Both the position numbers and the translations under genes were made by a program. Shown here in pieces: positions 24,150 to 46,515 of a stretch of 64,000 nucleotides of DNA. The stretch lies in the NCBI RefSeq assembly GCF_056712565.1, contig NZ_CM160072.1. One strand, written 5' to 3'. The number at the start of each line of letters is the position of its first letter. Position 1 is the stretch's first letter. Under the pieces are notes generated by a model that was not told the DNA's origin, searched no databases, and saw only the letters and a program-made list of their open reading frames with translations.

Positions 24150-24730
24150 AATAGAAACTCATTCGAAAAGGGAATGATGCAATGATAATTGCCATAACCT
24201 ATTTTTTCCATCTATAGATGGGTTTATTTACATATTATTGGTGAATGTAGGACGTTATTTTTACCCGCCATAAACTTCTTGATTACATAGTATTACGAAA
24301 GGATTTTACTGAGAACCAGAAGTAATTTTCCTTACCATCAAAATTCATCATCTTTGCCAAAGAAAAATGTTCAGAAAATAATCCATGAAAAATTGTCCGG
24401 AGCGCTTACTATTTTAATGGATTGTTAGTCTTTGCATGAGCAAACGGACTGATACATTTCTCTTTGTTCTCATTCAGAAAATCTCATCAGTTGGCGTTCT
24501 GCCCGATGTTGTGCTTTATGGGTGCGTTACGCTCCTGATGACGTCATTTGACGTTCAACAGCATCACGGGGCCGCACGACATTTCACGTCAGTCAGCGCT
24601 ATAGCTCAGAAACAAATTTTCCCGAATTGGGATATGCCCGCAAATTGCTGGTGATGTGGGGAGAATCTGGTTGAGTTCGGTAGAATTGATTTGGCGGCAG
24701 GACGCTTAAATCGTGGCGTCCTGAAACGAA

Positions 24731-24756
24731 AAACGGACCTCCGTGGAGGTCCGTTT
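24731..24756 (-). terminator. Native pheU-proximal terminator hairpin retained beside the att remnant
   Basis: aaacggacctcc-gt-ggaggtccgttt perfect palindrome immediately downstream (minus-strand sense) of the tRNA-Phe 3' fragment. Confidence 0.5.
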
Positions 24757-24765
24757 ATATGAATT

Positions 24766-24787
24766 TGGTGCCGGACTCGGAATCGAA
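24766..24787 (-). repeat. pheU: 22-nt copy of the tRNA-Phe 3' end (island attachment-site direct repeat); not an intact tRNA
   Basis: tggtgccggactcggaatcgaa equals the reverse complement of the tRNA-Phe 3' end TTCGATTCCGAGTCCGGGCACCA with one C missing; homology stops at 24787 and AT-rich foreign DNA follows. Confidence 0.7.
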
Positions 24788-24939
24788 TATTTTATTTATC
24801 ATATTGATATTGATGTGATTTATTTGGTTTGGTGAAAAATGTACCCTCTTTTGTACCCTCAGTCCCTTTTGCTGTGAAAAAGGAATCAAACCCGGGAGTT
24901 GGAAGATGAGGTGAAAAGGGGGACGCATAAAGGGATTCA

Positions 24940-24964
24940 CCTTAACAGCGTACTACTGTTAAGG
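24940..24964 (-). terminator. Stem-loop downstream of the island-terminal gene
   Basis: ccttaacag-cgtacta-ctgttaagg perfect 9-bp stem; no clear U-tract. Confidence 0.25.
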
Positions 24965-24980
24965 TGGGAGGACCATCTCA

Positions 24981-25544
24981 TTATCCCCACCGGTCCCATC
25001 TCACCAGGTTGTTGATGATAATTTTATTACTAAATTTGCAGGGCGGCCTGGTTTTGTAATCCCGGCTCAGTCCTCTGAAGGCATTGATCTCCCCCCGCTC
25101 AAACAGCTCATCCTTATTCTGGTGCAGTTGTTTAAATGTGCTCAGAATGTTCGCTTCGCTGATTTCCGGAAAATTATCATATTCCAGTGACCTGAACCCT
25201 GTATCACGTGCCTGTGCATCCATTAAGGAAAACATCCCGGAACGCTGCATCAGGTTACGCCAGATTTCGCGCTCAAGATTCCGGGTAATGGCTTTCATTG
25301 CTGTTTCTGGTTTCTCCATCATCCAGCAACCACAGCGAAAATTCTGTTTCATCGCCCAGTCCGGGGCGGCTTTACCGCCAATATTTTCCGTCAGTGCTGA
25401 GATTTCTGTCAGTTGCCGGATAAGCGTGTCGATTTGCAGTAGTGTACTCTTTCGTACAGCCAGGATGTGTCTGATACTTGTGGAACAGATAACGGCTGTA
25501 TGCCCGTTGACCGCGTTCGGGTGGGGGATTGTGATATCTGACAT
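24981..25544 (-). CDS. Hypothetical protein at the distal end of the CP4-like module
   Basis: 187-aa ORF with coding-like composition in operon orientation with the yeeW-like/cbtA genes; family not recognised. Confidence 0.45.
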   Translation of the reverse strand: MSDITIPHPNAVNGHTAVICSTSIRHILAVRKSTLLQIDTLIRQLTEISALTENIGGKAAPDWAMKQNFRCGCWMMEKPETAMKAITRNLEREIWRNLMQRSGMFSLMDAQARDTGFRSLEYDNFPEISEANILSTFKQLHQNKDELFERGEINAFRGLSRDYKTRPPCKFSNKIIINNLVRWDRWG

Positions 25545-25628
25545 TATGAGGTTTCCTTTCTGTTTATAAACGAAAACGCCAGCCCTGTTCAGGCTGGCGT
25601 CAGGAGAATGGAGTCTGGTGAGTGAGAT

Positions 25629-26051
25629 TCACCGGTTCTGGTGCATAAGTTGCAGTTGGTGCAGGGTACGGATATCCTCCCTGGCCTGTTCAATACAGGG
25701 CAGCAGTGCTGCCGAATCCGTTTTATCCTCATCGTTGTCGAAAATAATTCCGGACCCGCAGTCGATATTGTCCTGCAGCCACGCAATGAGGATATCCAGC
25801 GCTGTTTCAGTGGTTAATGGCATCACGCTCTGTATCACTGTATTGTCTTCCGGCAACTGATGAGGGCTGGCATAAGTTGCCGGTGTTTCGGTAGAGTCAC
25901 GGTCATCCACCACGCGGAGTGAATCACCGTTTTCAGCGGCCTTATTAATCAGTTCAGCGAGATTAACACCATCAATGTCAACGACAATTCGCCCCATATT
26001 CAGTGCCTGTACGTTAACGCTGTCGGCTTCCGGCGTCAGGGAAAGTTTCAT
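25629..26051 (-). CDS. YeeW-like protein encoded downstream of the CbtA toxin
   Basis: 140-aa ORF overlapping the cbtA stop by 4 nt; position equivalent to yeeW in CP4-44. Confidence 0.5.
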   Translation of the reverse strand: MKLSLTPEADSVNVQALNMGRIVVDIDGVNLAELINKAAENGDSLRVVDDRDSTETPATYASPHQLPEDNTVIQSVMPLTTETALDILIAWLQDNIDCGSGIIFDNDEDKTDSAALLPCIEQAREDIRTLHQLQLMHQNR

Positions 26052-26425
26052 TGTTTCACCTCCGGGTGCTTACCCAGGATAATATTATTTACCGTTCTGT
26101 AATTGTCGCGGGTCATCAGGCCGGTCGCCCTGCGAGCCCGGAGGATATCAATACTGTTTATTAACTGAGAACGGGTACAGGCGCTGAATCCCGGCTGGTC
26201 GGTACGTACCAGTGCGTATTTTTCAACGAGAAAGTTCACCGCATCGCACAGTGAAATGCCTGCCTCAATATGCTGCTCAATCACACGTTCATCAGCGAAC
26301 GGTGTGTCATTCAGCGTAAGGCCGTAGTGCTGATCCAGCAGTCGGGTGAGCAGTGTCTGCCAGATTTCAACCGGAGACGGGCGTGAACTGGCCGCCTGCC
26401 CGGGTAATACAGGTAATGTTTTCAT
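26048..26425 (-). CDS. cbtA: CbtA-family toxin (type IV TA; cytoskeleton inhibitor)
   Basis: 125-aa ORF MKTLPVLPGQAASSRPSPVEIWQTLLTRLLDQHYGLTLNDTPFADE..., near-identical to recalled K-12 CbtA/YeeV. Confidence 0.85.
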   Translation of the reverse strand: MKTLPVLPGQAASSRPSPVEIWQTLLTRLLDQHYGLTLNDTPFADERVIEQHIEAGISLCDAVNFLVEKYALVRTDQPGFSACTRSQLINSIDILRARRATGLMTRDNYRTVNNIILGKHPEVKQ

Positions 26426-26513
26426 ACTGAAGATTTTCCTGATATGCAGAGATGAAAAATGGAAAAGTGGCGTGGTGAAAGCACCAGGCCGAGCAGAAGG
26501 TTATTCTGGAGAG

Positions 26514-26882
26514 TTACTTTTTCGTTTCGGGCGTCGGATAAACAGCCATATAAACGTAGCCACAACTGCCGAGGGTGTCGGCTTCGCAGGTCAGCCCTTT
26601 TGCATACAGCGTGACGGTATGCTGATGGCGGGGATTCAGTTCACCGCTGGTGAGCATGAGTTCCAGTTGTTTCATCAGCAGCGGAAAGGCCTGGTCCAGG
26701 TGGTACGAATCCGCGTCGCTGAACCGCCCTCTGATACCGGCGCGGTCGGCAAGGTAATGCAACCGGTTGCCTTCCTGTACCAGACGGGCACCAAAACAGG
26801 GCGTCACGGTGCAGGGCAGTCCCCACCAGGTACGGTCGTTATTGTCGTCGGGAAGCGTTGTCCCGGGGAGTGTGTCTGACAC
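26514..26882 (-). CDS. cbeA: CbeA-family antitoxin (YeeU/YfjZ family)
   Basis: 122-aa ORF MSDTLPGTTLPDDNNDRTWWGLPCTVTPCFGARLVQEGNRLHYLADRAG... Confidence 0.85.
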   Translation of the reverse strand: MSDTLPGTTLPDDNNDRTWWGLPCTVTPCFGARLVQEGNRLHYLADRAGIRGRFSDADSYHLDQAFPLLMKQLELMLTSGELNPRHQHTVTLYAKGLTCEADTLGSCGYVYMAVYPTPETKK

Positions 26883-26961
26883 GATAAAATCCTCACAGAA
26901 AATTGGTTAAGAATGGTCCGGTGGTGGCGATAATTCTGCTCTTCTGAATGCCCTTCCAGAC

Positions 26962-27183
26962 TCAGTTCAGGGTGACGCTCATCAGCCGGACATACGGACC
27001 AAAACTGTCCTTCCGGCGTTCTGCAAACACGGCCAGCACACAGGGAATATCCTGTACTTCACGGCCGGTATATGTATCCGTGCTACCGTGCCAGCGGTAT
27101 TTACCGGTACAGAACGGAAAAAGACGGGATGCAGGATGCTGACGGTGAATACGCATGGCTTCACCACGGGTGATGATTTTCAT
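26962..27183 (-). CDS. yeeT: YeeT/YkfH-like small protein (DUF987)
   Basis: 73-aa ORF in the conserved position between the radC-like and cbeA genes. Confidence 0.65.
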   Translation of the reverse strand: MKIITRGEAMRIHRQHPASRLFPFCTGKYRWHGSTDTYTGREVQDIPCVLAVFAERRKDSFGPYVRLMSVTLN

Positions 27184-27269
27184 GAGAATAGTCCTCCTGA
27201 ATGTGAAAGTAAGAAACAGCTGAGAAAGAGAAACTGAAGTGATATGAAGGTGATTGTGACGGTGACGGG

Positions 27270-27746
27270 TTAAAGCAGACCGTGTTCCGCAAAGGAGAAA
27301 ACCTGGCTGCCACCGACTATCAGATGGTCCGGCACCCGGATATCCACCAGGCCCAGTGCCTGTACCAGACGTTCCGTGATAAGGCGGTCTGCCTTGCTGG
27401 GTGTGACTTCACCGGACGGGTGATTGTGTGCCAGCACCACAGCAGCGGCATTGTGATACAGGGCGCGTTTAATCACTTCCCGGGGATGGACTTCCGTGCG
27501 GTTGATGGTGCCGGTGAAGAGGGTTTCACCGGCAATCAGCTGATTCTGGTTGTTCAGATACAGCACCCGGAACTCTTCCCGCTCCAGTCCCGCCATGTTC
27601 AGAATCAGCCATTCTCGTGCCGCACGGGTGGAGGTGAAGGCCACGCCGGGTTCATGAAGATGGCGGTCCAGGGTTTTCAGGGCCCGTTGAATGAGGCTGC
27701 GCTCACCGGGCGTCATTTCTCCGGGCAGAAAGGAAATCTGTTGCAT
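27270..27746 (-). CDS. yeeS: RadC-like JAB-domain protein (YeeS/YfjY/YkfG family)
   Basis: 158-aa ORF with JAMM motif region ...VVLAHNHPSGEVTPSKADRLITERL... Confidence 0.8.
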   Translation of the reverse strand: MQQISFLPGEMTPGERSLIQRALKTLDRHLHEPGVAFTSTRAAREWLILNMAGLEREEFRVLYLNNQNQLIAGETLFTGTINRTEVHPREVIKRALYHNAAAVVLAHNHPSGEVTPSKADRLITERLVQALGLVDIRVPDHLIVGGSQVFSFAEHGLL

Positions 27747-27760
27747 TGTTCCGGCCCCTT

Positions 27761-28240
27761 TCAGTCAATGATGCGCATAATGGCGCTGCATTCCGGATGC
27801 TGCAGGGCGTAATCCCGCAGCCGGTAATAATGGACCGTCATGGCATAACATTCCGTACGACAGGCATGATGGCTGTACGTCATCAGACAGGCGGCAATAC
27901 CGGCAGCTTCCGGACTCATTTCAGCGCGGTTACCGTTCATGGCATTGAACAGTACCCATGTTTCGTCATCATCGTCATCCGGTTCAGGTGCCATAAATGC
28001 GCCACCGTTGTTCAGGGTGTACAGATTCCAGATGCCCCCGCAGTAGTCTTCGCACAGACGGTCCATCCAGCCGAAGACACGGGGCTCCAGGGTCACCCAC
28101 TGTGGAATGAGGCCAAAATGCTGCGGCCAGAAGCTGATACGTTGTTCATCAGGGACGGGAGTAGCAACCAGTTGGGGCTGGTTATTCCCTGGTGCTGTGG
28201 CTGAAGAAAGAGCAGTTGTGTTCTGAGAAACGATTTTCAT
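27761..28240 (-). CDS. Antirestriction protein (KlcA/ArdB-like; YfjX/YkfF family)
   Basis: ORF track 183 aa; likely start at internal MKIVSQNTT...; acidic DDDDDE stretch and conserved C-terminal half. Confidence 0.65.
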   Translation of the reverse strand: MKIVSQNTTALSSATAPGNNQPQLVATPVPDEQRISFWPQHFGLIPQWVTLEPRVFGWMDRLCEDYCGGIWNLYTLNNGGAFMAPEPDDDDDETWVLFNAMNGNRAEMSPEAAGIAACLMTYSHHACRTECYAMTVHYYRLRDYALQHPECSAIMRIID

Positions 28241-28505
28241 GAGTGAAATCCTTACAATGTGTATAAATGAGAGGAAATAAAGGCCGGGGGCTGACAACAT
28301 CACGTTCATCACTGACCGTGAGACCCGGCAATATCAGGGATGAATGATATTCGGCTGAAATTCCGGACAGCCGTACGCGTAACCGTTCCGGTCACAGACG
28401 GATGGCCAGAAGATGCCATTGCCTGTACTCAGTCTGCACAGACTGAGTTCTCCGGGGCGTCGGGTGATTCTGGTGCCTGAATCACGCCTTCAGGGACAGA
28501 TTGCA

Positions 28506-29324
28506 TCAGCGCAGGCTCTCCAGTAGCGTTTCTGCCATCACCCACAATGCGCGATTGAGCTTAATGCCGGTGTCGATGCTGTGAATGGCACGGGTGTGGA
28601 TACGTTTTCCTCTGGCACTGCGACCGGAAATTCCGCCTTTTAGCATATTCTCCTGGATGGTCTGATAAGTACTCCACAGGTCCTTACCGTAATCCTCCCG
28701 GCGTCGTGGCGTCAGAATGTCGGCGGTGGTGACGGGCTGATGTTCGTCACCATAACGGTAAGTCAGTGCCGCCTGTGCCAGCGCCTGGCGTGTCGGTGGC
28801 GGCAGGACCAGCGACTGCATGGCATCACGCTTCTCCTCTATCCGGTCAAACACGCCCACCACCTCGTAAGCCCCTTCAATAACTTTCTCCACCACATTTC
28901 CCCGGTGTGGAACACGCAATTCTCCCAGAGACTGACCGCAGACCAGTCCATTGGTACAAATGGCACGAAAATATCCGGGTAACATCTGGTAGCTGGATGA
29001 ACCGTCATGGGAGTTGAGCAGAATAATTTCAGGCACATGCTGACCGGTTATCTGTCCGGCCCGCCGCAGACGCAGCATATGTTTGGTATATTCCCGGCGG
29101 CTCTGGTCGCGCACACGGGTCTGGCAGGCGAAGAACGGCTGAAAGCCTTCCCGCTGCAGATTTTCCAGGACGGTGATGGTGGGAATGTACGCATACCGTT
29201 CACTGCGGGAGGTGTGCCGGTCTTCTCCAAAAATACTCGGGACGTGGTACATCAGTTCTTCGCGTGTCAGTGGGCGCTCCCGACGGATCTGATTTACATG
29301 ACCAAAACGACTGGCTAATTGCAT
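28506..29324 (-). CDS. DUF932-family protein (YafZ/YfjQ-like)
   Basis: 272-aa ORF in the conserved CP4-type gene order. Confidence 0.55.
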   Translation of the reverse strand: MQLASRFGHVNQIRRERPLTREELMYHVPSIFGEDRHTSRSERYAYIPTITVLENLQREGFQPFFACQTRVRDQSRREYTKHMLRLRRAGQITGQHVPEIILLNSHDGSSSYQMLPGYFRAICTNGLVCGQSLGELRVPHRGNVVEKVIEGAYEVVGVFDRIEEKRDAMQSLVLPPPTRQALAQAALTYRYGDEHQPVTTADILTPRRREDYGKDLWSTYQTIQENMLKGGISGRSARGKRIHTRAIHSIDTGIKLNRALWVMAETLLESLR

Positions 29325-29413
29325 ACTTTGCTCCTTATGAATGAATTAGCGGTATAAACGAAAAGGCCGCGTCTCCCGGAGAAGACGCGGCCTGATGGAT
29401 GAAATGAAGACGT

Positions 29414-29647
29414 TTATTGCCTGAGAATTCCCTCACTGGCGAGATACGAATTTAGCTGTTTTCCGGCATCAGGTTCAAAATTCCAGCACCGCCAGCGTAG
29501 CTGCCCTTCGGCATTGCGGATAACCAGCCGGAAATGCGTTCCCTGGTCATCTTCAATAAGCACATTGCGGTAAGCTGTTGTGATGACAACCGCCTGTTCG
29601 CGTGAGAAAGGGCCTTCGGGCAATAAAACAGGGCGACAGTCCAACAT
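29414..29647 (-). CDS. Small hypothetical protein of the CP4-like module
   Basis: 77-aa ORF in operon orientation; family not recognised. Confidence 0.35.
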
Positions 29648-29652
29648 ACCGG

Positions 29653-30330
29653 CTATTTTCCGATAAATTCAACGCTGGCGCCGGTGGCATTACCGTCAGC
29701 ACCAACCGTGACGGTCACTTTGTCGTACGCACGGTCTTCAGGATTGAATACTTCAAACTCAACCTTATTGCCTTTTACTTCGTAAGAGCCAAAATCAGCG
29801 GTTTCTGTTGTTTCCTCGTCGTATTTCCGGGCGTATGCCTGTCGGGCAGCCTGCAGTACGGAGTCTTTATTAATAGTGGTCGTCTGTTTCGGGGAAAAAA
29901 CGGCAAGTGATGTGACAAATTTCGGACAGACCTTCAGCATATCACCGCGGGTGAATTCCATTCGTACACCAAATGCCTGTAAAACGGACACATCACGCTC
30001 TGCTATGGAGTGAACGGCTTTTTTGACCATTTCCGACGCCTGTTCGGCTTCCACCTCAACAGCCCTGAATCCCGTCTGCTGATTACACATTTGTGATGTG
30101 GGGATCAGGTTACCGTTAATACTGATACGGCTGCCCAGGAGCGTCTGTACGCCATTCGGGCATCCCTGCATCAGGCCGGTAATACCAATCGTGCCATTTT
30201 TCAGCATTACCAGCGCCTGACCATCTTCCGTCATGGTCTGGCACCAGCCGTTTTTGACAGCCCAGTTACCGGCGGAGGCGGAGAAGGATGCAACAGTGAA
30301 AAGCAGGGGAAAAAGAGTTCTGGTATTCAT
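29653..30330 (-). CDS. Putative secreted protein or lipoprotein (YfjS/YafY-like position)
   Basis: ORF track 261 aa; likely start at [22 protein letters not shown], a signal-peptide-like N-terminus. Confidence 0.4.
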
Positions 30331-30480
30331 GACTGACCTCTGAAATGAACGTACGGTGTTATTGATAATGATGGAAGGTATGCAGTGACTGTTCAGGAAA
30401 TGACGTAATAGCCATATATTTAGTTTTCTGTTCAACATATTGTCTCCATACCTGTCGGGACGGCTTTGGCAGGCCGGCGA

Positions 30481-31161
30481 TCACAGGTTAAAGGTGTTGA
30501 TAAGTTTATGGATGAAAGAGAAATGTGGCAGGGCGGAGATAAAACGCTCTTCAGCGACCAGATTGTGGATGTGGCCTCTCCGTTCAAACCGTTCTGATGT
30601 CAGGCTGACTGATTTGATATCTGCCAGGGGAAAGACCTGCAGTTTTCCCTTCTGTAACGCGATCAGATACCAGCTTCCGCTGTAATAAATGAGCCGGCAG
30701 GGCTCCAGTGACGTATACCATCGCTCAGTCATCAGCGAGATGTGGATACACTGTTTTATTGCCAGGATGAGTTGCGAGAAACACTCGGGGAACGTTGCAG
30801 TGATATCCGGCGCCGGTAGCCAGATAAGGCAGGGAGAGGGCTCCTGGTTGTCGGTAAGACAGGTTATCAGTCGTCCGTTCCGGAGCGGAAGTATCCGTGC
30901 GATCCCGGTATTCTGTATAAAAGAAAGCATTTCAGGGATCGCACACGGGCTGCTCTGTCGTCTGAGGCTGTACCTGCCATTTCTGTACTCTAAATCCAGG
31001 TGAACCAGACGCTGATGAAAATCGCGCTGTAAAGTACGTTCTGTAACGCCAAATTCATCTGACAGTGTCTTTAGTGACAGAGATTCTCCGGCCATCAGTC
31101 GGCTGATAATGAGTGATAAGCGAACCGCCAGACGATCATGCCGGGAACGATCATCAGACAT
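30481..31161 (-). CDS. WYL-domain transcriptional regulator (YfjR-like)
   Basis: 226-aa ORF, N-terminal HTH (LKTLSDEFGVTERTLQRDF) and C-terminal WYL-like region. Confidence 0.65.
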   Translation of the reverse strand: MSDDRSRHDRLAVRLSLIISRLMAGESLSLKTLSDEFGVTERTLQRDFHQRLVHLDLEYRNGRYSLRRQSSPCAIPEMLSFIQNTGIARILPLRNGRLITCLTDNQEPSPCLIWLPAPDITATFPECFSQLILAIKQCIHISLMTERWYTSLEPCRLIYYSGSWYLIALQKGKLQVFPLADIKSVSLTSERFERRGHIHNLVAEERFISALPHFSFIHKLINTFNL

Positions 31162-31363
31162 AGATGTGTACTCCGTAAGAAAACATCTTTTATTTCATGA
31201 TGTTATTATGCCTCATGGTGTTGAAAGGATGTGTCGTATCTGAATAATCAGGAATAAAATGCAGCAGAAAAAATATTCCTTTAATTATCTGATTTTTAAT
31301 GATGATTTCATAAAAAGAAGAATACTCGTTAATCCAGCGACACATCCTGTCGGCGTGAGTGTG

Positions 31364-32248
31364 TCAGAACAGACGATCCCACAGTGTTTCCAGCAGGCGG
31401 ATAATGCGGTCCCGGGCTTTACGCAGAAGCTGTAACATCCAGACCGGAAAAGTGAACCGGGCAACGGCGTCGTCAAAACTTTTCCCGATGGCGTCACCAA
31501 AAGTCTGTTGTGCGTGTTTCTGGGCCTGTTCAGAGCGGTTTTCCCCCCGGATATGTGAATAAACCGCACTGGTTGCCTGCGGTGGCAGGGCGTGGATCAT
31601 CAGCGACACAAACGCCGGAAGATTCCAGCCGACAGGCGCAGCAACGGGGAGTACCGGAAATGATGACGGGAACAGGGTTGCCACCCTGGCTGTAACAGTT
31701 GCCAGTGAGAGTTCCTGGTGACGGGATGGGCATTTTTCTGTGGCATTCCATTCTTCAGCAGGAAACACGCGATCGGCATGGCTGAGAACAAACAGAAAAC
31801 GCGAGGGATCTGCACCTTCATTCAGTAAAAACTGATGCATGGCAATATCGGCAGCATACGCACGTTCATCAGCCCGCAGGATCCAGATAATCAGATCCAG
31901 TTCCGGCAGTAACTGACGGTAAATCTCCCGGTATTCCTGATCATGCTGCGGTGTCTCACCAATGCCGGGCAGATCGACCAGCGTCATTCTGCGTTCACCA
32001 ATCTGCAGGGTGAGGCGATGAGCCTGGCGGGTGCAGCCGTTCAGGGGATGCGTGGCGCAGATACGGGACTGAAAAATGGCATTACACAGACTGCTTTTGC
32101 CGGTGCCGGATTTACCCATAATGCCAATCACGGGCTCGTAATGAATAACACCGTGGAGATGTTCAAGGATTTTCTGGCGAATTTCTTCAGGAAGAAACGT
32201 CAGATATGATTTCACTTGCGCGGAGAGGGAAGAATTGCTGAATGGCAT
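31364..32248 (-). CDS. YeeP/YfjP/YkfA-family GTPase
   Basis: 294-aa ORF with P-loop GIMGKSGTGKSSLCNAIF and DLPG switch motif. Confidence 0.8.
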   Translation of the reverse strand: MPFSNSSLSAQVKSYLTFLPEEIRQKILEHLHGVIHYEPVIGIMGKSGTGKSSLCNAIFQSRICATHPLNGCTRQAHRLTLQIGERRMTLVDLPGIGETPQHDQEYREIYRQLLPELDLIIWILRADERAYAADIAMHQFLLNEGADPSRFLFVLSHADRVFPAEEWNATEKCPSRHQELSLATVTARVATLFPSSFPVLPVAAPVGWNLPAFVSLMIHALPPQATSAVYSHIRGENRSEQAQKHAQQTFGDAIGKSFDDAVARFTFPVWMLQLLRKARDRIIRLLETLWDRLF

Positions 32249-32348
32249 ACCGGTATCCTGTTGATTTCACTGAACCGGATCACACTAATCCGGTTTATCA
32301 TTCAGGTAATATGGGTGTGAAAATTTTTCCATTGACGGGAAGAAGAGT

Positions 32349-33572
32349 ATGGCTAAAAACAAAGGTATCTGTCGGAATAAAAAATGCAGTAATCCTGTTT
32401 CAGAATTTGATGAGGCAAATGCCTTAAGGTTATGCGATGATCATTATAAGCTATGGAAGCGAAATAAAGAGAATCGTCGGGTCAGGAATATTTGTCGTAT
32501 AATTAGTAGATATGACAAAAGTCTGGACTGGGAGATATTTTATAGAGTAAGAGATGCTGCAAAAAATAAAACGGGAAAGAGAATTATTGAGGACGCAAAA
32601 ATATTACACCAATGGCGTGCTTCAAAGCAAGTAAGAAAAAGTTTTCACAAGGGTGTGCTTCGGTCACGGGAATGGCTTAATACACAGGAGTTACTGAGCA
32701 GAAAACATATATCTGTTACAGGTGAACTATTTAAATTTTACATAAAAGATATTATCAGATTATATTGCTATAAGTTTCTCTACAGCAGAGAATATCTTAA
32801 TGAAAACGCATACAAAAAACGATATCAGAGAGATATTCACCCCAGAAAAGTTAATGTTCCGATACTGCAACTTGAAGTTGCATGGATAAATAATAATTGC
32901 CGCTCAAGTGATTCAAGCACTGATATTATTATCCTTCCGAGGATGATAAGAAGAATGGTTGTATTTAATTATACGAAGATAAATAAACAATTAGAGAAAG
33001 TGTTGGGGGGGATAGCACGAAAACAAACCTCAGAAAGGAATAAAGGCGGTCTCTATACCAGAATAAAAAAAGAAAGTGACTTTCTTTCTATGGATAGATT
33101 TATGGTGGAAATAGAAAATATCATAAGACCTGAAAGGTTTCCTACATCAATTTATCCAGTCTTTTCACATTCATTTATTGAACGAGAGCTTCCGCTACTG
33201 AATCTTGCCCGATCACAGTATAAAAGAGCAATAAGTAAAAGAGTGGCGAATTCAATTTTTTATACTTTGCAAAAAACTAACGTGGCATTATGGCTATATC
33301 TTGAAATGTTTGCTCTGGTGGCATTCATTAAACTGTATACAGGAAAAGGTTTTGAATTCATAAAGAACATGTGTGTATTTATCGATTATGAGAAAGGGAT
33401 AATAAAATCCACACATGAAGAACTGCTGGGTGAAATTAAACGTAACATTCAAGTGAATTTGAAGGTGAATCCTGATAATTTTCCAGAGTTAATAGATATA
33501 TACAATTCATGCTTTAGTGAAAATATATTGTCATATGATATTCAGGATGGTAATTTTAAATGGCGCTCATGA
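32349..33572 (+). CDS. Hypothetical 407-aa basic protein with an N-terminal Cys4-type (zinc-ribbon-like) motif; AT-rich foreign gene, family not recognised
   Basis: Uninterrupted 1224-nt ORF in visibly AT-rich DNA, divergent from the GTPase gene; N-terminus CRNKKCSNPVSEF...LCDDHYKLW; Lys/Arg-rich. Confidence 0.6.
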   Translation: MAKNKGICRNKKCSNPVSEFDEANALRLCDDHYKLWKRNKENRRVRNICRIISRYDKSLDWEIFYRVRDAAKNKTGKRIIEDAKILHQWRASKQVRKSFHKGVLRSREWLNTQELLSRKHISVTGELFKFYIKDIIRLYCYKFLYSREYLNENAYKKRYQRDIHPRKVNVPILQLEVAWINNNCRSSDSSTDIIILPRMIRRMVVFNYTKINKQLEKVLGGIARKQTSERNKGGLYTRIKKESDFLSMDRFMVEIENIIRPERFPTSIYPVFSHSFIERELPLLNLARSQYKRAISKRVANSIFYTLQKTNVALWLYLEMFALVAFIKLYTGKGFEFIKNMCVFIDYEKGIIKSTHEELLGEIKRNIQVNLKVNPDNFPELIDIYNSCFSENILSYDIQDGNFKWRS

Positions 33573-35024
33573 TGTGAAAATATTAATTTCACATTACATA
33601 TTAATTATCCACAAAAAACATATAATTAATTTCAATGAGTTACATATAAAAACGTTGATGATTATCCAGCTTAGTATGGTTATGCAATGTGATGCTTAAC
33701 GCTTACAGATAATAACACATTCATATGAGCTATATATCATAATATTCAATAATCATGATATGCTAATCTGATTATGGATAAAAATTACTGAATGACGCCA
33801 TATTATGATTGGCAGTGTTTCCTGTATACGATGACTTATCTCTCCCGCATCATATGGGGGTACGTTTCTTAGGAAAAGTGACGGGGTTACAGAAGCCAAT
33901 TACGATAGTTTGTTGTAGAGTTATCACGAGTTTTTGTTGTTCTGAAGACGGAATCAGAAAAATAATTCCAGAGTAAACATGTCTGTTTTTTGACCAGTAA
34001 AGATCCATGCTGGCCGTGAAAAACTGAAATCAACACTCAGTCTGCATGGATGTCTGAAGATATTGAGAATGTCGGGAATGGTACTATATACGTATTATAC
34101 AGACATATCTTCACTAAGTGTTATACACGCATTTTCATAAACAATTCTACAAGTGTTTTCATTAAGCATTGCTGTACACATTGTTTGATCTGATACACAT
34201 CCAGTTTAGTAAATCTTTACGTTAGCTAAAATCAGTTTAAAGCTGCTACAAAACAATTTTTCTTGTTTAAGTAATCAGGATGATATTCTATTTTTCTGAA
34301 GTTACGTTTAACCTTTTCTTAGTTTTTGTGTTTTTAGTCGTTAACCTGAGACAAGTGTCTTTATGTAAAAACGCAAATCCGGCTGAGATAACCTGGCGTG
34401 ATTTACTGTGTGCTTACGATGATTTTGTTAAATGGTTTTATGGATGATTTTGTAACGATGAGATTGATGAGATGATTAACTGGCCCTGGTGTTTTTTCTC
34501 AGCGCAAGACTCTTTTCAGGAAAAGCGTGATGATTGGTTCTGGTGTTTTGATTCAGATGAGGTTTACGTTATCGATGGTTAACCGTTTTTATGGAGCGTA
34601 GTTAAAAGTAACGTTTTCAGTATAAGAAAATCGATTCTGATGTTGGTGGTTTTTGTTCTTGGGGCGGGGGTGTCTGTAAACAGGTTTTAATCGCGCTGTT
34701 CGGCTCTGTGATTGAGTTGTGTGGTTAAGCTGTAGGTGTGGTGTTGCTGTTGATTTACAGCGCCAGAAAGCGTTCTGATTGCGTTTCTGACGTTTTGTTT
34801 GCGCGTTCTGTTGATCCGTTTCCCTTCAGGCTTTGTAGTTTTTAAAAAACATTTATGCCGTTGTTGTGTGTTTTACTCTGCGTGTAGGTTTATTTTTTCT
34901 TCGTGGGGGATTCATTCTGTTTTAATCAGGAGCCATTGGCGTTGCTCAATGGCGGGATGCCGTAAAGTTTTACCGCAGTGATTAATGATGTGAAGTCAAT
35001 CCAAATCAACGGAGATCTCTCATC

Positions 35025-35756
35025 ATGAATCAACCAATACACAATGCTTACTGGTTATCCCGTTTTGAAAGTATTCTCAACAGTGCCCTGGCGCAACACC
35101 GTGCCGTCTCGTTAATCCGGGTGGATTTACGTTTCCCTGAGTATATGCCTGCCACCATCATGGATACCGATTTAGATTCAGCGGTGATTTCTCGTTTTTT
35201 TGCATCCCTGAAAGCAAAAATTCAGGCTTACCAGCGACATAAACGACGTGCCAACAAGCGTGTGCGTGCAACCACTCTGCGTTATTTCTGGTGTCGGGAG
35301 TTTGGCAAGGAAAAAGGCAGGAAACATTATCACGTGATATTACTGCTCAACAAAGATACCTGGTGCTCGCCAGGGGATTTCACCGTTCCTTCTTCGCTGG
35401 CGACGCTGATCCAACTGGCATGGTGCAGTGCTCTGCATCTCGAGCCCTGGCAGGGTAATGGACTGGTTCATTTTTCCAGGCGGACGCCTTTCCGTAAACC
35501 GACATCATCTGATGCTCGCCCTTCTTCCGATGATACGCCTTTGTCGGGTGGATGTTCTGAAACCAGGAAGGCTTCAGACAAAAAGTCTGGTGGATCCGCT
35601 GTGCTCTGGGTCAAGCGTGGTGATGTGGAAGCGATGCAGAAAGCCCGGAACAGAGCCAGTTATCTCGTGAAATATGAGACGAAGCAGCATGACGGTTCCG
35701 GGCAACGTAATTATGGTTGCAGTCGTGGGGTAGGGCGTCTACTGGATGGCAGGTGA
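35025..35756 (+). CDS. YagK/YfjJ-family protein (inovirus Gp2-like, HUH-type motif HYHVILLL)
   Basis: 243-aa ORF with RVDLRFPEY and HYHVILLL motifs; assignment from recalled family signature and island context. Confidence 0.45.
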   Translation: MNQPIHNAYWLSRFESILNSALAQHRAVSLIRVDLRFPEYMPATIMDTDLDSAVISRFFASLKAKIQAYQRHKRRANKRVRATTLRYFWCREFGKEKGRKHYHVILLLNKDTWCSPGDFTVPSSLATLIQLAWCSALHLEPWQGNGLVHFSRRTPFRKPTSSDARPSSDDTPLSGGCSETRKASDKKSGGSAVLWVKRGDVEAMQKARNRASYLVKYETKQHDGSGQRNYGCSRGVGRLLDGR

Positions 35757-36102
35757 GCCCTGTAAAACGGCATCCGGTACCAGAGTGTATGTCACGGTAA
35801 GGGCGTCAGCCAACGCCCTTAGATCGTTTTCTGCTAATAGCCCTGAAGTCATGAAACGGTATTTTTATCTGCTTCCGCTCCTGGAAACACTCCGTCGGTA
35901 AAAACTTACCGGGATGATTAATGATGTGAACCGAAGTCAACGGAGATCATTCCCCCTGAACCTGCATCCAGTGTTCTTTCCCTTATCTTCCCGTTCTGCT
36001 TCGGTTCTTCACTTATTCCATCAACTCCATCCGCAAACCATAACACGTCAGCTTATTCACGGGCAGGACGCATTGTGGGCTGCGCATAACGGAGCATATC
36101 TT

Positions 36103-36678
36103 ATGAATGCTATCCCTTATTTCGACTATAGCCTGGCCCCCTTCTGGCCATCTTATCAGAACAAAGTCGTCGGCGTCCTTGAGCGTGCGCTGCGTGAGCA
36201 GTCCGGCTCACGGATACGGCGGATCCTGCTTCGTCTGCCGTGTGAATATGACAATACCTTCAACAGCAGAACGACCTGGTTTGGTATGGATTTTATCGAA
36301 ACCGTCAGTGCGCTGATGAATGCAACCCCCGGACGTGATCTCTGCTGGCTCCTGACCCGTCATCCTGAAAAACCGGAATACCACGTGGTGCTGTGCGTCA
36401 GACAGGAGTATTTCGATGGCCCTGAATTGGACCGGTTGATACTGGATGCCTGGAGTAACGTACTGGGCTTCGCGTCACCGGGTGAAGCAAAGCAGTATCA
36501 GAAGCAGATCACCCGGGATGTGGTGCTGGACAGTCGTTCACCGGACTGTGAAAACATCCTCAAAGAGTTGATATGGGCGTTCAGTGATTTCGCCCGCGAT
36601 CGTCGTGGTGTGTGCGATCCGGAAGCCCGTTGCCTCGCCGGTAATCCCGGCTATCCCGGATCTGCAGGACCGTTCTGA
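36103..36678 (+). CDS. Second YagK/YfjJ-like paralog with degenerate HUH motif (EYHVVLCV)
   Basis: ORF track starts at 35914 but the first 63 codons are the conserved upstream motif and low-complexity sequence; Met at 36103 aligns with the paralog-1 N-terminus (RILLRLPCEY vs RVDLRFPEY). Confidence 0.4.
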   Translation: MNAIPYFDYSLAPFWPSYQNKVVGVLERALREQSGSRIRRILLRLPCEYDNTFNSRTTWFGMDFIETVSALMNATPGRDLCWLLTRHPEKPEYHVVLCVRQEYFDGPELDRLILDAWSNVLGFASPGEAKQYQKQITRDVVLDSRSPDCENILKELIWAFSDFARDRRGVCDPEARCLAGNPGYPGSAGPF

Positions 36679-36806
36679 AAGCTCGGTTCAGCATCTTTCC
36701 CTGCATTCGCACAAACTTCATAAATCTCACAAAGGACATTCTGACCATGTTGACCACAACAAGCCACGACAGCGTGTTACTGCGTGCCGACGATCCCCTG
36801 ATCGAC

Positions 36807-36980
36807 ATGAACTACATCACCAGTTTCACCGGTATGACCGATAAATGGTTTTACAAGCTGATCAGTGAAGGTCATTTCCCTAAACCCATCAAACTGGGGC
36901 GCAGCAGCCGCTGGTACAAAAGTGAAGTGGAGCAGTGGATGCAGCAGCGAATTGAGGAATCACGAGGAGCAGCAGCATGA
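36807..36980 (+). CDS. alpA: AlpA-family phage transcriptional regulator (excisionase-like HTH)
   Basis: TDKWFYKLISEGHFPKPIKLGRSSRWYKSEVEQW matches the AlpA signature; ORF track start 36747, internal Met at 36807 preferred. Confidence 0.7.
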   Translation: MNYITSFTGMTDKWFYKLISEGHFPKPIKLGRSSRWYKSEVEQWMQQRIEESRGAAA

Positions 36981-37098
36981 AACGTGTTGCAATACCAGCG
37001 CCGGCATTGCGGAAATCAGCCCTGTCCCCGATGCTGGCGACACTCCCGCTCATCTTTCTGCTGACTCCTCTGGTCTGCCAACTGTTTGTCATCATTTC

Positions 37099-37266
37099 CT
37101 GACTGATTCGTCATTCCCTTCGTCCCGCCAGTCACTGGTGTTTGTATCGTACCGTCCGGTGTTGATGTGCGTTTTCCGTGTGTCTGCACCGGCTTAACAA
37201 AATTCAACAGGGTTTGAAAAGGAACATTTCGTGCAAATAACCGAAGCCTTAATTTCAGAGCCGGGA
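37099..37266. repeat. Copy 1 of a ~150-170 bp repeat (inverted relative to copy 2 at 44502-44651) with a conserved 7-1-7 palindrome
   Basis: Manual alignment to the reverse complement of 44502-44651: blocks ccggctctgaaa, gcttcggttatttgca, tccttttcaaacc, cgccagtNactggcg, gaatgacga shared; roughly 75 percent identity. Confidence 0.6.
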
Positions 37267-37279
37267 GACATCCGGCGTT

Positions 37280-37636
37280 TTGTTCAGCAGGCGCTGGAGT
37301 TCTTTAATCTGCTTCATGGCAGCAGCAAGTTCAGAGGCAGGAACGACCTGTTCTCCTGCGGCCACAGCAGTAAGACTTCCCTCCTGGTATTGCTTGCGCC
37401 AGAGAAATAACTGGCTGGCTGCCACACCGTGTTGCCGGGCAACAAGGGAGACCGTCATTCCCGGTTCAAAGCTCTGCTGAACAATAGCGATCTTTTCCTG
37501 TGTAGTACGCCGTCTGCGTTTCTCCGGTCCTAAGACATCAATCATCTGTTCTCCAATGACTGGTCTAAAAACTAGTATTAAGACTATCACTTAAATAAGT
37601 GATATTGGTTGTCTGGAGATTCTGGGGGCTAGTCTA
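37280..37636 (-). mobile_element. insC: IS2 remnant (left inverted repeat plus 5' part of insC); rest of the element missing
   Basis: Terminal ggttgtctggagattctgggggctagtcta matches the IS2 IRL; minus-strand [56 protein letters not shown]... equals IS2 InsC until homology ends near 37280. Confidence 0.75.
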
Positions 37637-38793
37637 GTTTTAAAGCGCCCCCTGCCGTATCAGAACTGGGGAATGCTACAGGGTTTGACCTGTTCCTCGA
37701 GGATCGTAGCGGAGCTAGCCATGAAAAAATGATCCAGGCCCGAAATCAGCTTCTTGCTGAAGCGGCGAAAAGTCCAGCGTTAAACATGGTTCGTCCTAAC
37801 GGCATGAACGATGAGCCTCAGTTCCAGATTCTGATTGATGACGAGAAAGTTCAGGCGTTTAAACTGAGCATGAGCGACGTCGACAACATAATGTCAGCAG
37901 CCTGGGGTTCGATGTATGTAAATGATTTTAACGATCGTGGACGGGTGAAAAAAGTCTATATTCAGGGCGAACCCGGCTCACGTATATCACCGCAGGATTT
38001 TGATAAATGGTATGTCCGTAACAGTGATGGCGACATGGTTTCCTTTGCCTCTTTTGCAACAGGCAAATGGATTTATGGCTCACCAAAACTGGAGCAATAT
38101 AATGGTATCTCTGCTGTCGAAATCCTGGGGGAACCGGCACCAGGATACAGTTCCGGGGATGCAATGAAAGCAATTGAGGATATTGCGGCAAGACTTCCCG
38201 AAGGTTTCCATATTTCCTGGACAGGTTTGTCTTTTGAGGAACGACTTTCAGGTTCTCAGGCTCCTGCACTATATGCACTTTCACTGTTGATCGTCTTTCT
38301 GTGTCTGGCTGCACTGTATGAAAGCTGGAGCATTCCTTTCTCGGTCATGCTGGTTGTTCCGCTTGGTGTCCTGGGGGCTGTCTGTGCTACTTTGTTGCGC
38401 GGCCTTGGTAACGATGTCTTTTTCCAGGTCGGTTTATTAACAACAATAGGGCTGTCTGCGAAAAATGCCATACTTATCGTGGAGTTTGCTCGTGAATTGC
38501 ATGAGAAAGAAGGACTAAGCATTAAAGAGGCTGCTGTTGAAGCGGCGAGAGTGAGGTTAAGACCGATAATTATGACTTCGCTGGCATTTGTAATGGGGGT
38601 TATCCCACTGGCTGTCTCGACTGGAGCAAGTTCCGGAAGTAAACATGCCATCGGTACTGGTGTGGTTGGAGGGATGATCACTGCTACGATACTGGCAATC
38701 TTTTATATTCCTCTCTTCTATATGTTAATTGCCGGGTTCTTCAGCCGCAGAAATAAGAAATCATCGGATAAGACTGAAGCTGAGCAATCATAA
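37637..38793 (+). pseudogene. RND multidrug efflux pump (AcrB/AcrF-like), C-terminal ~350 residues only; 5' part removed at the IS2 junction
   Basis: [28 protein letters not shown]...[25 protein letters not shown]... aligns with AcrB residues ~690-1049; no N-terminal two thirds. Confidence 0.8.
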
Positions 38794-44713: not shown

Positions 44714-46515
44714 GTAGGAGGCGGGATCACTCCCGCCGTCCTCTCACACCACCGTACATGCGGCTCCGCATACGGCGGTTCATGTTAACACTGGAACTGC
44801 CTCTGCTGTTCCAGCAGTGATATCAGACCCTGCCTGCTGAACCACGCATTCTTTATCGCCTGATTCATATGGCTTGACTCTGAGTTCCACCATGGCCCGT
44901 GGTTGTTGTACGCTGAGATCATCGCCCTGTCCTTACTCAGTCCTGCTCTTTGCAGGTTCTTTGCCCGGGTTAGCGGTCTCTTCCACTGCCGCTACAACAA
45001 GCAACGCAGTTTCCGTTTGATCCAGCCATCCAGCTCCTCCAGCACTCCTCTGACCTCCGTCAGCCTGAAGTAGCTTATCCATCCACACAGCACTGGTGTC
45101 AGAGCATTGATTGTCGCTTTCACTGATTTGCTCCGGTTTCCCGTCGTCAGACTGTGGACTTTCTCCTTCAGCCTGTTCACGCTCGTCAGGGCTATCTTCA
45201 GCTTCGCCTGTTTGTGCCATGTCACACTGTACCCGAGGAACTTCCGATCCCACGGGCGCGCCACCGCGCTCTTCTTCTCATTCACCTTCAGTTTGTTCTC
45301 CACGAACGCCCTGATGTTCTTCAGCAGATGGTCGCCCGCTTTCCGGCTGCTTACGTAGATGTTGCAGTCGTCTGCGTAGCGGCAGAAGCTGTGTCCACGA
45401 CGCTCCAGTTCTTTATCCAGTTCATCCAGCAGGATGTTCGACAGTAACGGCGACAGTGGGCCGCCCTGCAGCATGCCCGCCTGCCGTTTCTCCCTTTGCC
45501 CGTCTTTAACCATTTCCGCTTTCAGGTAGCGGCGTATCAGTCACAGCACCCGCCTGTCCTTTATCGTTCTGGCCAGACGCGTCATCAGGAGTCTGTGATC
45601 CACCCGGTCGAAGAACTTCTCCAGATCCATATCCACCACCCACCGTTTGCCACCCCGTATGTAACGCTGTGCCTGTTGCACCGCCTGCTGGATAAGCCTG
45701 TCCACCACCGTCGGGATGCCTGAGGTTCTCACGCCGCCATCCGGCTTCGGGATATCCATCCGGCGTATTGTCCGCGGCTGGTAGTTTCCGTCAATCAATG
45801 CCTGCCTGACGCTGCGCCAGTTCTTCTTCAGCCACGGTTTCAACTCCGCCACGCTGAGGTTATCCACCCCCGCCGTGCCTTTGTTTTCCACCACGCGCTG
45901 ATAAGCCAGCATCAGGTTTTCTCTCGTTATCACCGCTTCCATCGTCAGCGGCACTTCCGCTTTCGTTTGCCCACCCGCCGCCGTGCTGATTTCAGCGCCA
46001 TCATGCAGCCCTGACGGATACTGTCCGTCTCCTCTGCCGCTGGTCGCAGTGGCCTGCGCTTGTGCTTCATTAATCATCATCGGGTTCGGATGTCCTAATC
46101 ACAGTTAATCATGTTCGGCCCTTCATGCTGCCGGTTTTGCAGCACTACTACGGCGTCGGCTGACTTCTGCCGCCCCATCCCGGCGCCTCACGGCGCCGGT
46201 AGCACACTGGCAGGGCGACAGATCTCCCGGGGTAATTCACGCGACTTTCCTGCTTATGCCTGTCGGCTTTACGTCACAGCGTTCCGTGTGAGTATCGGGC
46301 TTTGGTGATTAGTGCCACCTTACCCTGCTGCGCCGCCTTAACCGCTTCCTGTTCGTCAGGCCAGCATTTTGCATCCAGCTTCCTTCAGATTTCACCTCGC
46401 GATGAACACCCTTGCCTTCCGCTAACACTTCCCCTCACCGGGTGTGTGGAGGACTTTCACCTCTTAGTCGTTCTTCTGCCACCACAGTTGAAGAACAGCG
46501 CCAGTCACGGCGCAC
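44714..46515 (-). mobile_element. Group II intron (bacterial class C-like: inserted just downstream of an intrinsic terminator)
   Basis: Minus-strand 5' end GTGCG at 46511-46515, six nt after the terminator U-tract; domain V-like hairpin (GAACCGCCGTATGCGGAGCCGCATGTACGG) and domain VI-like hairpin near 44715-44780; RT ORF inside; 3' boundary approximate. Confidence 0.7.
44992..45942 (-). pseudogene. Intron-encoded reverse transcriptase/maturase interrupted by in-frame stop codons
   Basis: RT motifs (GVDNLSV, QGGPLSPLLSNILLDELD, FCRYADDCNIYV) and X-domain (CGWISYFRL); in-frame TGA at 45541-45543 and TAG at 44992-44994 after which the frame still reads RQWKRPLTRAKNLQ. Confidence 0.7.

Follow-up and report, generated by a model that had tools for sequence, protein, structure and literature searches.

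What does an AT-rich gene of 407 codons do at the center of a CP4-57-like island, and why is that position kept for it? The question arises at positions 32349-33572 of a 64,000-nucleotide stretch of contig NZ_CM160072.1 (NCBI RefSeq assembly GCF_056712565.1), which we call the window at its full length. The gene, here named ORF407 after its open reading frame (ORF) of 407 amino acids (aa), lies in a sharply bounded cassette that is replaced as a block between conserved island flanks, and in every slot that we sampled the cassette carried a member of the same hyper-divergent and previously undescribed protein family. The answer that we favor, tentatively, is that the protein would serve in defense or exclusion by binding nucleic acid without catalysis, and would be induced through the central switch of the island. 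The gene and its cassette are laid out as follows.

32349..33572, + strand: ORF407 coding sequence, 407 aa, ATG start, 1224-nt frame, identical to WP_001107219.1
32324..33958, + strand: replaceable cassette of 1635 bp, comprising a 5' untranslated region (UTR) with ribosome-binding site, ORF407, and a 386-nt AT-rich 3' flank
33573..33958, no strand: the cassette's non-coding 3' flank, moderately conserved in alleles of the 407-aa class, with indels

ORF407 is a real, functional gene under purifying selection, since its ratio of nonsynonymous to synonymous divergence (dN/dS) among E. coli alleles is 0.24-0.33, next to 0.18-0.23 for the adjoining GTPase gene. Among those alleles the frame stays intact at synonymous divergence of up to 25%, and a pseudogene or chance reading frame is ruled out by the dN/dS together with conservation across genera. 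The protein is 100% identical to the RefSeq "hypothetical protein" WP_001107219.1 of E. coli S88, APEC O1, ATCC 11775 and other strains. Of 5426 complete E. coli genomes, 975 carry ORF407, and the family is present in the extraintestinal pathogenic E. coli (ExPEC) lineages UTI89, S88, APEC O1, 042 and IAI39. A preliminary description of this DNA had already placed a 407-aa gene on these coordinates, more AT-rich than its neighbors and coding for a very basic protein, and all of this is borne out: the + strand frame starts with ATG, its G+C is 0.335 (0.39/0.32/0.29 at the three codon positions) against 0.50-0.56 around it (0.533 for the GTPase gene, 0.501 for the WYL gene, 0.505 for the Gp2-like gene and 0.557 for the DUF932 gene), and the protein has a pI of 9.82, with 77 lysine and arginine residues vs 45 aspartate and glutamate residues. 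A pI of 9.3-9.9 is common to all allele classes. Low G+C might be taken for a mark of recent arrival; family members have a G+C of 0.28-0.36 in every host, with neighbors at 0.45-0.58, and we therefore regard it as a maintained property of the family.

How the gene travels can be read from the edges of the cassette. In E. coli elements that carry the other allele classes on backbones ~94-96% identical to that of the window, homology is lost at 32323, 25 nt 5' of the ATG, and comes back at 33959/33960. A query of 32249-34000 matched 1729 genomes, 970 of them over the whole cassette and ~760 over the first 75 nt (32249-32323) only, so that this 75-nt left flank of the slot is present in 1729 of the 5426 complete genomes. 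Between the window and another locus (L017), synonymous divergence (dS) is 0.016 for ORF407 and 0.164 for the adjoining GTPase gene, which indicates that the cassette has been exchanged between backbones. Ten slots were then sampled by backbone sequence alone, four through the GTPase gene and six through the 75-nt flank, and all ten held a member of the ORF407 superfamily; that these proteins form one superfamily follows from the ORF407-family profile, which recognizes the other classes at E values of 3e-24, 1e-12, and 2e-8 to 2e-10. The preliminary description had spoken of the variable cargo slot of a CP4-57-like element. The slot is indeed replaceable, with sharp breakpoints and conserved flanks, but the notion of unrelated cargo did not hold, because the same family filled 10/10 slots; unrelated cargo at the equivalent slot is found only in the more distant K-12 islands. 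There the equivalent boundary of CP4-57 leads, as had been stated, to rnlAB (rnlB-rnlA), and also to the anti-phage genes abpAB.

Searches of the 3' flank (33573-33958) and of the tract downstream for an RNA gene (Rfam), tandem repeats, operators or a conserved small ORF gave nothing convincing, and a palindrome at the ORF407 stop codon is not conserved among alleles of the 407-aa class. Single strains carry disrupted versions of the locus: IS1 is inserted in ORF407 in E. coli 268.2 (H1), ORF407 is frameshifted in APEC IMT5155 (L010 7986-9208), and in FDAARGOS_1286 (L015 217-1100) it is the GTPase gene that is frameshifted, beside an intact ORF407.

What, then, is common to proteins that differ so much? 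Two parts of the ORF407 protein can be told apart.

32364..32453, + strand: C2CH zinc-finger-like module, residues 6-35, with C8, C13, C29 and H32 invariant; a long basic helix comes next
32640..33569, + strand: core, residues 98-407 (~310 residues), with a mostly helical, orphan predicted fold common to all allele classes

The Cys-X4-Cys...Cys-X2-His motif reported earlier takes the form C8-x4-C13-x15-C29-x2-H32, and 14 members, at identities of 22-37%, keep all four residues without exception; R27, A23, N24 and Y33 of the finger are nearly invariant. When searched by itself against Pfam and PDB, the isolated finger had no match of its own. An AlphaFold2 (AF2) model from the 14-sequence alignment (pLDDT 78.8, pTM 0.67) has three parts: a small finger at the N-terminus, a long linker that is basic and helical but modeled with low confidence, and a confident core (~100-407) that is mostly helical with two short beta-hairpins. 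Fold searches with this model returned uncharacterized relatives only and no annotated match, so that the core fold, as modeled, is an orphan. The residues that stay invariant through the whole superfamily, its most divergent classes included, are W109, Y139, P197, Y236, P282, L286, R293 and Y385. No invariant acidic or histidine catalytic set is retained across the superfamily, and we therefore favor a binding or scaffolding protein over an enzyme.

An enzyme is nonetheless what some database names would make of it. Distant relatives in AFDB are labeled "HNH endonuclease", A0AAX3CP38 is labeled "Reverse transcriptase", the stretch N24-x4-C29-x2-H32 resembles the second half of an HNH motif, and one member has a weak PHROG HNH match (E 0.073). 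Against a true HNH (beta-beta-alpha-Me) nuclease, one allele class does without the finger altogether. Pfam, NCBIfam and PDB gave no match with the full-length protein, the 14 members or the isolated finger, even at E <= 10, and the 14 aligned fingers have no histidine or conserved polar residue between C13 and N24 as a candidate general base. As for a reverse transcriptase (RT), also the UniRef name of P0016, there is neither an RT motif nor a PF00078 match. We rejected both names, and consider it extremely improbable that either describes the protein.

The finger itself comes and goes between classes. In addition to the 407-aa class, there is a 376-aa class (G+C 0.335; 463 of 5426 genomes) that keeps the finger and a C-terminal LYNSFF motif, and a class of 310-320 aa, found at some level in 741 of 5426 genomes, from which the finger is absent. 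The finger-less proteins are always paired with a convergent gene for 262-284 aa, of which we list three examples.

L012 8950-9804, - strand: convergent partner gene of the finger-less class
L024 4536-5345, - strand: convergent partner gene of the finger-less class
L025 4553-5341, - strand: convergent partner gene of the finger-less class

The C-terminus of the partner resembles a ribbon-helix-helix regulator (NF010256, E 7e-5), and no cognate small partner gene was found with the 407-aa and 376-aa classes. This arrangement suggests that a DNA-binding function may be supplied either in cis, by the zinc finger, or in trans, by the partner. The partner protein is itself very divergent, at 26-70% identity. 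At the other extreme, the finger is duplicated in P0049 (L022 6001-7398), whose two tandem N-terminal fingers resemble those of the 376-aa class and the 407-aa class, in that order, and P0062 (L020 2564-3676) has an extra C-x2-C...C-x3-H motif in its linker. Alleles that are old, homologous and highly divergent, each of them under constraint, present at intermediate frequency and exchanged as blocks, form a pattern that one typically sees where balancing selection acts on a gene of conflict or specificity.

Both the family and its fold are previously undescribed. Profile searches started from ORF407 alone, from the alignment of 14 members and from the zinc finger in isolation, and against Pfam, NCBIfam, PADLOC, PHROGs and PDB all three yielded scattered noise alone. 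ORF407 had zero matches in Pfam, NCBIfam, PADLOC and the PDB sequences, and its sole match in PHROGs was at noise level (E 0.082). The claim that the protein matches no family thus holds for each of these libraries, and profile and structure searches alike gave no annotated relative. phmmer, run exhaustively against 1.84 billion cluster representatives, returned 25 matches, ~10 of them full-length clusters, and all are unnamed. An index of 5.8 billion proteins returned 16 clusters, of which the divergent ones (33-37% identity) belong to Klebsiella, Citrobacter and metagenomes, and profile searches of the same index added almost no new members. Relatives occur in just 3 of ~100,000 species-representative genomes. 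K-12, with CP4-57 and CP4-6, is without any family member; YfjH, YfjM, YagM, YagN and YagJ of K-12 were compared as possible relatives and none match. By these searches, ORF407 is the founding member of an unnamed protein family restricted to Enterobacterales.

The next part of the question is what might switch such a gene on. Its control region and the genes to its left are these.

32249..32323, no strand: divergent control region owned by the backbone, with a palindrome and a -10-like box
31364..32248, - strand: YeeP/YfjP-type GTPase gene, first gene of the leftward backbone operon
30481..31161, - strand: helix-turn-helix (HTH)-WYL regulator gene (YfjR/YafY-like), candidate binder of the palindrome

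ORF407 and the GTPase gene are divergent, as had been noted, with a gap of 100 nt between them. In that gap lies a perfect palindrome, AACCGGAT-N7-ATCCGGTT, at 32273-32295. It is identical across all three E. coli allele classes, and it therefore tracks the backbone and not the cassette. Further on, a -10-like G-TAATAT (32306-32312) points into the cassette and is invariant in ten aligned loci; it ends ~10 nt before the breakpoint, so the promoter would be the backbone's, with a predicted transcription start near 32319-32323, close to the edge of the cassette. A scan of the intergenic region with the sigma-70 consensus listed no promoter, and the TAATAT is seen only in the comparative alignment. 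A perfect inverted repeat of 5-8 bp ends 10-13 nt upstream of the box in 7/10 loci. Its arms vary by locus (AACCGGAT, ATCCTGGC, TATCCG, ATGCCG and GCCGG), and its loop contains TTGACA in two loci. Among shuffled 50-mers, an inverted repeat of at least 6 bp turned up in just 7.8%, at arbitrary positions.

The obvious candidate for binding the palindrome would be the HTH-WYL protein. WYL (PF13280) genes are found in L004, L019 and L021, the gene in the window is annotated WYL, and where the GTPase gene is missing (L006, L007) the HTH-WYL gene is directly divergent from the family member. The locus thus has the layout of a WYL-regulated gene, an adjoining HTH-WYL gene together with a palindrome at a promoter-like region. 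In K-12, upstream of yfjP (L013) and ykfA (L014), the palindrome is followed by GATGATAT and then by CTGAAGATTTTTTCAAT, and the sequences diverge directly after. On the strand read toward the GTPase gene, a T-run comes after the K-12 palindrome AACGGCAGAACC-n5-GGTTCTGCCGTT, which would there resemble an intrinsic terminator or attenuator placed ~25 nt ahead of the start codon of that gene; both an operator and an RNA hairpin are possible.

The exclusion or defense reading would put these elements together as follows. The backbone supplies the palindrome and the -10-like box, and the cassette supplies the 5' UTR, the gene and the 3' flank, making the site a "promoter-out" slot. An island regulator, for which the HTH-WYL protein is the candidate, would release the central promoter, and ORF407 protein would be made. 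The protein would then bind nucleic acid stoichiometrically through its finger and basic surface, with phages or rival mobile elements excluded as a result, and frequency-dependent selection would maintain the divergent alleles in the population. Nucleic-acid binding, WYL control and the exclusion or defense activity are the parts of this scheme that we infer.

Composition and promoter could also be read in another way, as those of a selfish, H-NS-silenced addiction or toxin-like gene that harms cells which lose or derepress the island and has no direct anti-phage role. The low G+C is strongly kept in hosts of 50-57% G+C, the promoter seems weak or regulated, the sigma-70 scan of the divergent gap having listed no match, and the backbone already has a CbtA/CbeA addiction module. 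Also in line with this reading is one borderline hydrophobic helix, at residues 312-330 (KD19 1.78), but this helix holds the near-invariant E319 and is modeled as a confident buried helix. Moreover, no small partner or antitoxin gene accompanies the 407-aa or 376-aa class, and no similarity to toxin families emerged in the searched libraries. We consider a toxin-like gene improbable.

The gene content of the backbone raises the further idea of an anti-defense or establishment protein, guarding the island, or else a helper element, as it enters a new cell. Genes of the leading-region type abound in the backbone (ArdB/KlcA-like antirestriction, RadC/JAB, DUF932), and rapid allelic diversification would suit an arms race. 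Known DNA-mimic anti-restriction proteins, however, are small and acidic, whereas the ORF407 protein is large and very basic. The gene is also transcribed away from the antirestriction operon, and no homology to anti-defense families was found in Pfam or PHROGs. This idea seems to us quite improbable.

A more serious challenge comes from the position that the family keeps in other hosts, for which the genes and the non-coding tract to the right of the cassette are needed.

33959..35024, no strand: non-coding AT-rich backbone tract, 75-90% conserved across elements with different cassettes
35025..35756, + strand: Inovirus-Gp2 / YfjJ-YagK-like (rolling-circle Rep-like) gene of the rightward module
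36747..36980, + strand: AlpA-like HTH gene of the rightward module, directly after the family member in most of the distant loci

In Klebsiella, Citrobacter, Atlantibacter, an unclassified Enterobacteriaceae strain and several metagenome contigs, homologs down to 23% identity stand in the same position, divergent from the GTPase or the HTH-WYL gene and followed by alpA and a Gp2/YfjJ-like gene. In these loci, backbone proteins are 52-75% identical to those of the window, and the ORF407 homolog is 33-37% identical. The lone positional exception, P0062, adjoins an integrase and not the GTPase gene. Some genomes hold up to 4-6 such elements, and elsewhere in the same islands there are defense genes of several kinds (type I restriction-modification, TIR, BrxR, McrBC and HEPN). 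One locus, L007 (CACSKA010000007.1), is labeled Chryseobacterium sp. 18061. It is a typical enterobacterial island laid out as L006 from an Enterobacteriaceae strain, with DUF932 and alpA products 73% and 76% identical to those of the window, and the organism label is probably wrong or the assembly contaminated.

Such constancy of place is what one might expect of an island-specific regulator or a replication or excision specificity factor, comparable to lambdoid repressors or the Stl proteins of Staphylococcus aureus pathogenicity islands (SaPI), encoded by the first gene of the rightward module. The protein would bind island DNA or sense a helper phage, and it would diversify so that co-resident islands avoid cross-talk. 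This would account for the constant place as first gene of the alpA / Gp2-like module, kept in even the most distant homologs, for the strict tie to one island type, with the 407-aa protein lacking a phage or plasmid match, and for the number of such elements in one genome. A DNA-binding finger fused to the protein, or a ribbon-helix-helix-like partner in trans, would suit a regulator, as would a non-enzymatic pattern of conservation and a gene apparently expressed from the island's own control region. However, the classes are shuffled relative to both flanks, and all three come with one and the same palindrome and with a GTPase gene, a Gp2-like gene and non-coding tracts that are nearly identical; this absence of co-variation with any cis element weakens the idea. 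The cassette 3' flank has no repeated operator-like sites, and the stop-codon palindrome, as said, is not conserved. K-12 CP4-57 and CP4-6 have no family member, yet CP4-57 reportedly still excises, and a core of ~300 residues is large for a simple repressor. On balance we find a regulator possible but rather unlikely.

The preliminary description had named a single-gene defense or abortive-infection factor as a candidate role. The defense or exclusion reading that we favor has to be weighed in its turn. We prefer it because the slot is equivalent to the one that holds rnlAB/abpAB, because the cassette is independent of its flanks, and because K-12 islands manage without the family. It also fits with a DNA-binding module that is always associated with the protein, be it a fused finger or the ribbon-helix-helix-like partner, and with three divergent classes at intermediate frequency (975, 463 and 741 of 5426). 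Several observations weigh against it. In 14/15 cases, independent loci are at the same island position, and a slot that always holds this family (10/10) looks more like a fast-evolving core gene than like cargo. Defense genes are usually promiscuous between element types, and in our searches the family was absent outside this island type; tblastn of the 407-aa protein against 50,697 phage and 72,556 plasmid records found nothing, the other allele classes not having been searched there. PADLOC-DB v2.0.0, which served as the defense library, gave nothing meaningful for ORF407, the 376-aa and 320-aa classes, the partner gene and 10 divergent members (a match to DpdJ, at E 0.031, was at noise level), so that a check for known defense models came back empty. 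No toxin-like or enzymatic domain was seen in the ORF407 protein, and a literature search by accession and island gene names found nothing on it. Taking the two leading answers together, it is conceivable, though we would not lean on it, that the family forms a new class of nucleic-acid-binding proteins with an orphan fold and alleles under balancing selection, acting either in non-enzymatic exclusion of phages and other mobile genetic elements through a WYL switch, or as Stl-like, helper-sensing master regulators.

Some features of the island around the slot deserve mention for themselves. The tract at 33959-35024 is 1.07 kb without an annotated gene, upstream of the Rep-like Gp2/YfjJ-like gene. 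It contains small ORFs at 34280-34447 and 34472-34582, the latter with a repeated W-x-W-C-F peptide, and direct repeats at 34481-34502 and 34535-34556, and its role might be that of an origin or of a regulatory site. In some relatives a 176-aa gene is inserted between the equivalents of 34562 and 34850. Between the Gp2-like gene and alpA, a "hypothetical" gene at 35914-36678 (+ strand, 254 aa; 191 aa in the shorter RefSeq version) has 22% identity to K-12 YfjJ at E 0.002, and it may be a second, degenerate YfjJ/Gp2-like paralog. At each of its ends the window's island has decayed (~24400-37700; S88 annotation, L001): an integrase fragment lies by cadC, the DUF4942 and DUF5983 genes are truncated, and a transposase remnant precedes an RND permease gene that is truncated as well. 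Further right, at ~44990-46080, two fragments with a reverse-transcriptase domain break up the grp (glycyl-radical propanediol) microcompartment cluster.

Why should such a slot matter? Most E. coli genomes carry islands of the YeeP/YfjP type (CP4-57, CP4-44, CP4-6 and relatives), which are as a rule regarded as decaying cryptic prophages. In a large sub-lineage of them, a promoter-like region under the control of the island feeds a cassette slot with precise edges, located at the central control region, and the slot is filled by deeply divergent alleles of a family without a name, a Pfam model or a structural relative, in a pattern typical of genetic-conflict genes. If the family is defensive, it would add a single-gene system with a new fold that is widespread, easy to test and present in major ExPEC lineages. 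If it is regulatory, it would offer a handle on island induction and mobilization, and were its members Stl-like regulators, the "cryptic prophages" would be a still-active family of satellites. Either way, the family merits a profile model and a name.

How does the locus compare with systems that are already known? Starting with the finger, the C2CH signature (C...C...C-x2-H) on a basic protein recalls the THAP domain, and one of the 14 fingers matched THAP C2CH (PF05485) at E 0.044. The spacing in the family, C-x4(2)-C-x15-C-x2-H (C-x4-C-x15-C-x2-H in ORF407), is far shorter than the C-x2-4-C-x35-53-C-x2-H of THAP fingers; membership is unsupported, and we set it aside. As a whole, the locus can be compared with the CP4-57 slot between yfjJ and yfjP. 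Both elements have the GTPase, DUF932, WYL regulator, antirestriction, RadC, CbtA-type toxin-antitoxin, alpA and YfjJ-like genes, and in both a palindrome, a -10-like box and a T-rich box precede the GTPase gene, with the variable interval opening directly beyond them. They differ in that CP4-57 holds unrelated, characterized systems whereas the slot in the window belongs to one homologous, hyper-divergent family, and in that the alpA module is co-directional with the GTPase gene in CP4-57 and divergent from it in the window.

An HTH-WYL gene with a palindrome at the promoter is a layout known from defense operons controlled by BrxR and CapW. Like BrxR-BREX and CapW-CBASS, the island has an HTH-WYL gene beside a variable AT-rich gene (directly divergent in L006/L007) and a palindrome that overlaps a promoter-like region; unlike them, it has its WYL gene inside a leftward backbone operon, and ORF407 resembles no known defense protein. 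In the imm cassettes of lambdoid phages and in SaPI Stl, divergent alleles of DNA-binding proteins are swapped between conserved flanks, and the exchange of divergent alleles as a block at the divergent control region of a mobile element is common to those systems and to this one. Here, by contrast, the palindrome lies outside the cassette and is the same for all alleles, no allele-specific operators were found, though a target may lie elsewhere, and the protein is ~400 aa long with an orphan core fold. Finally, P2 phages and P4 satellites reportedly have defense hotspots, and these resemble the locus in being a fixed slot between core genes of an Enterobacterales mobile element, with sharp breakpoints and turnover in the population, although they hold many unrelated systems where the slot in the window holds homologs of one family. 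Arrangements of this kind, in which conflict-type genes turn over in a regulated slot of a mobile element, are already known.

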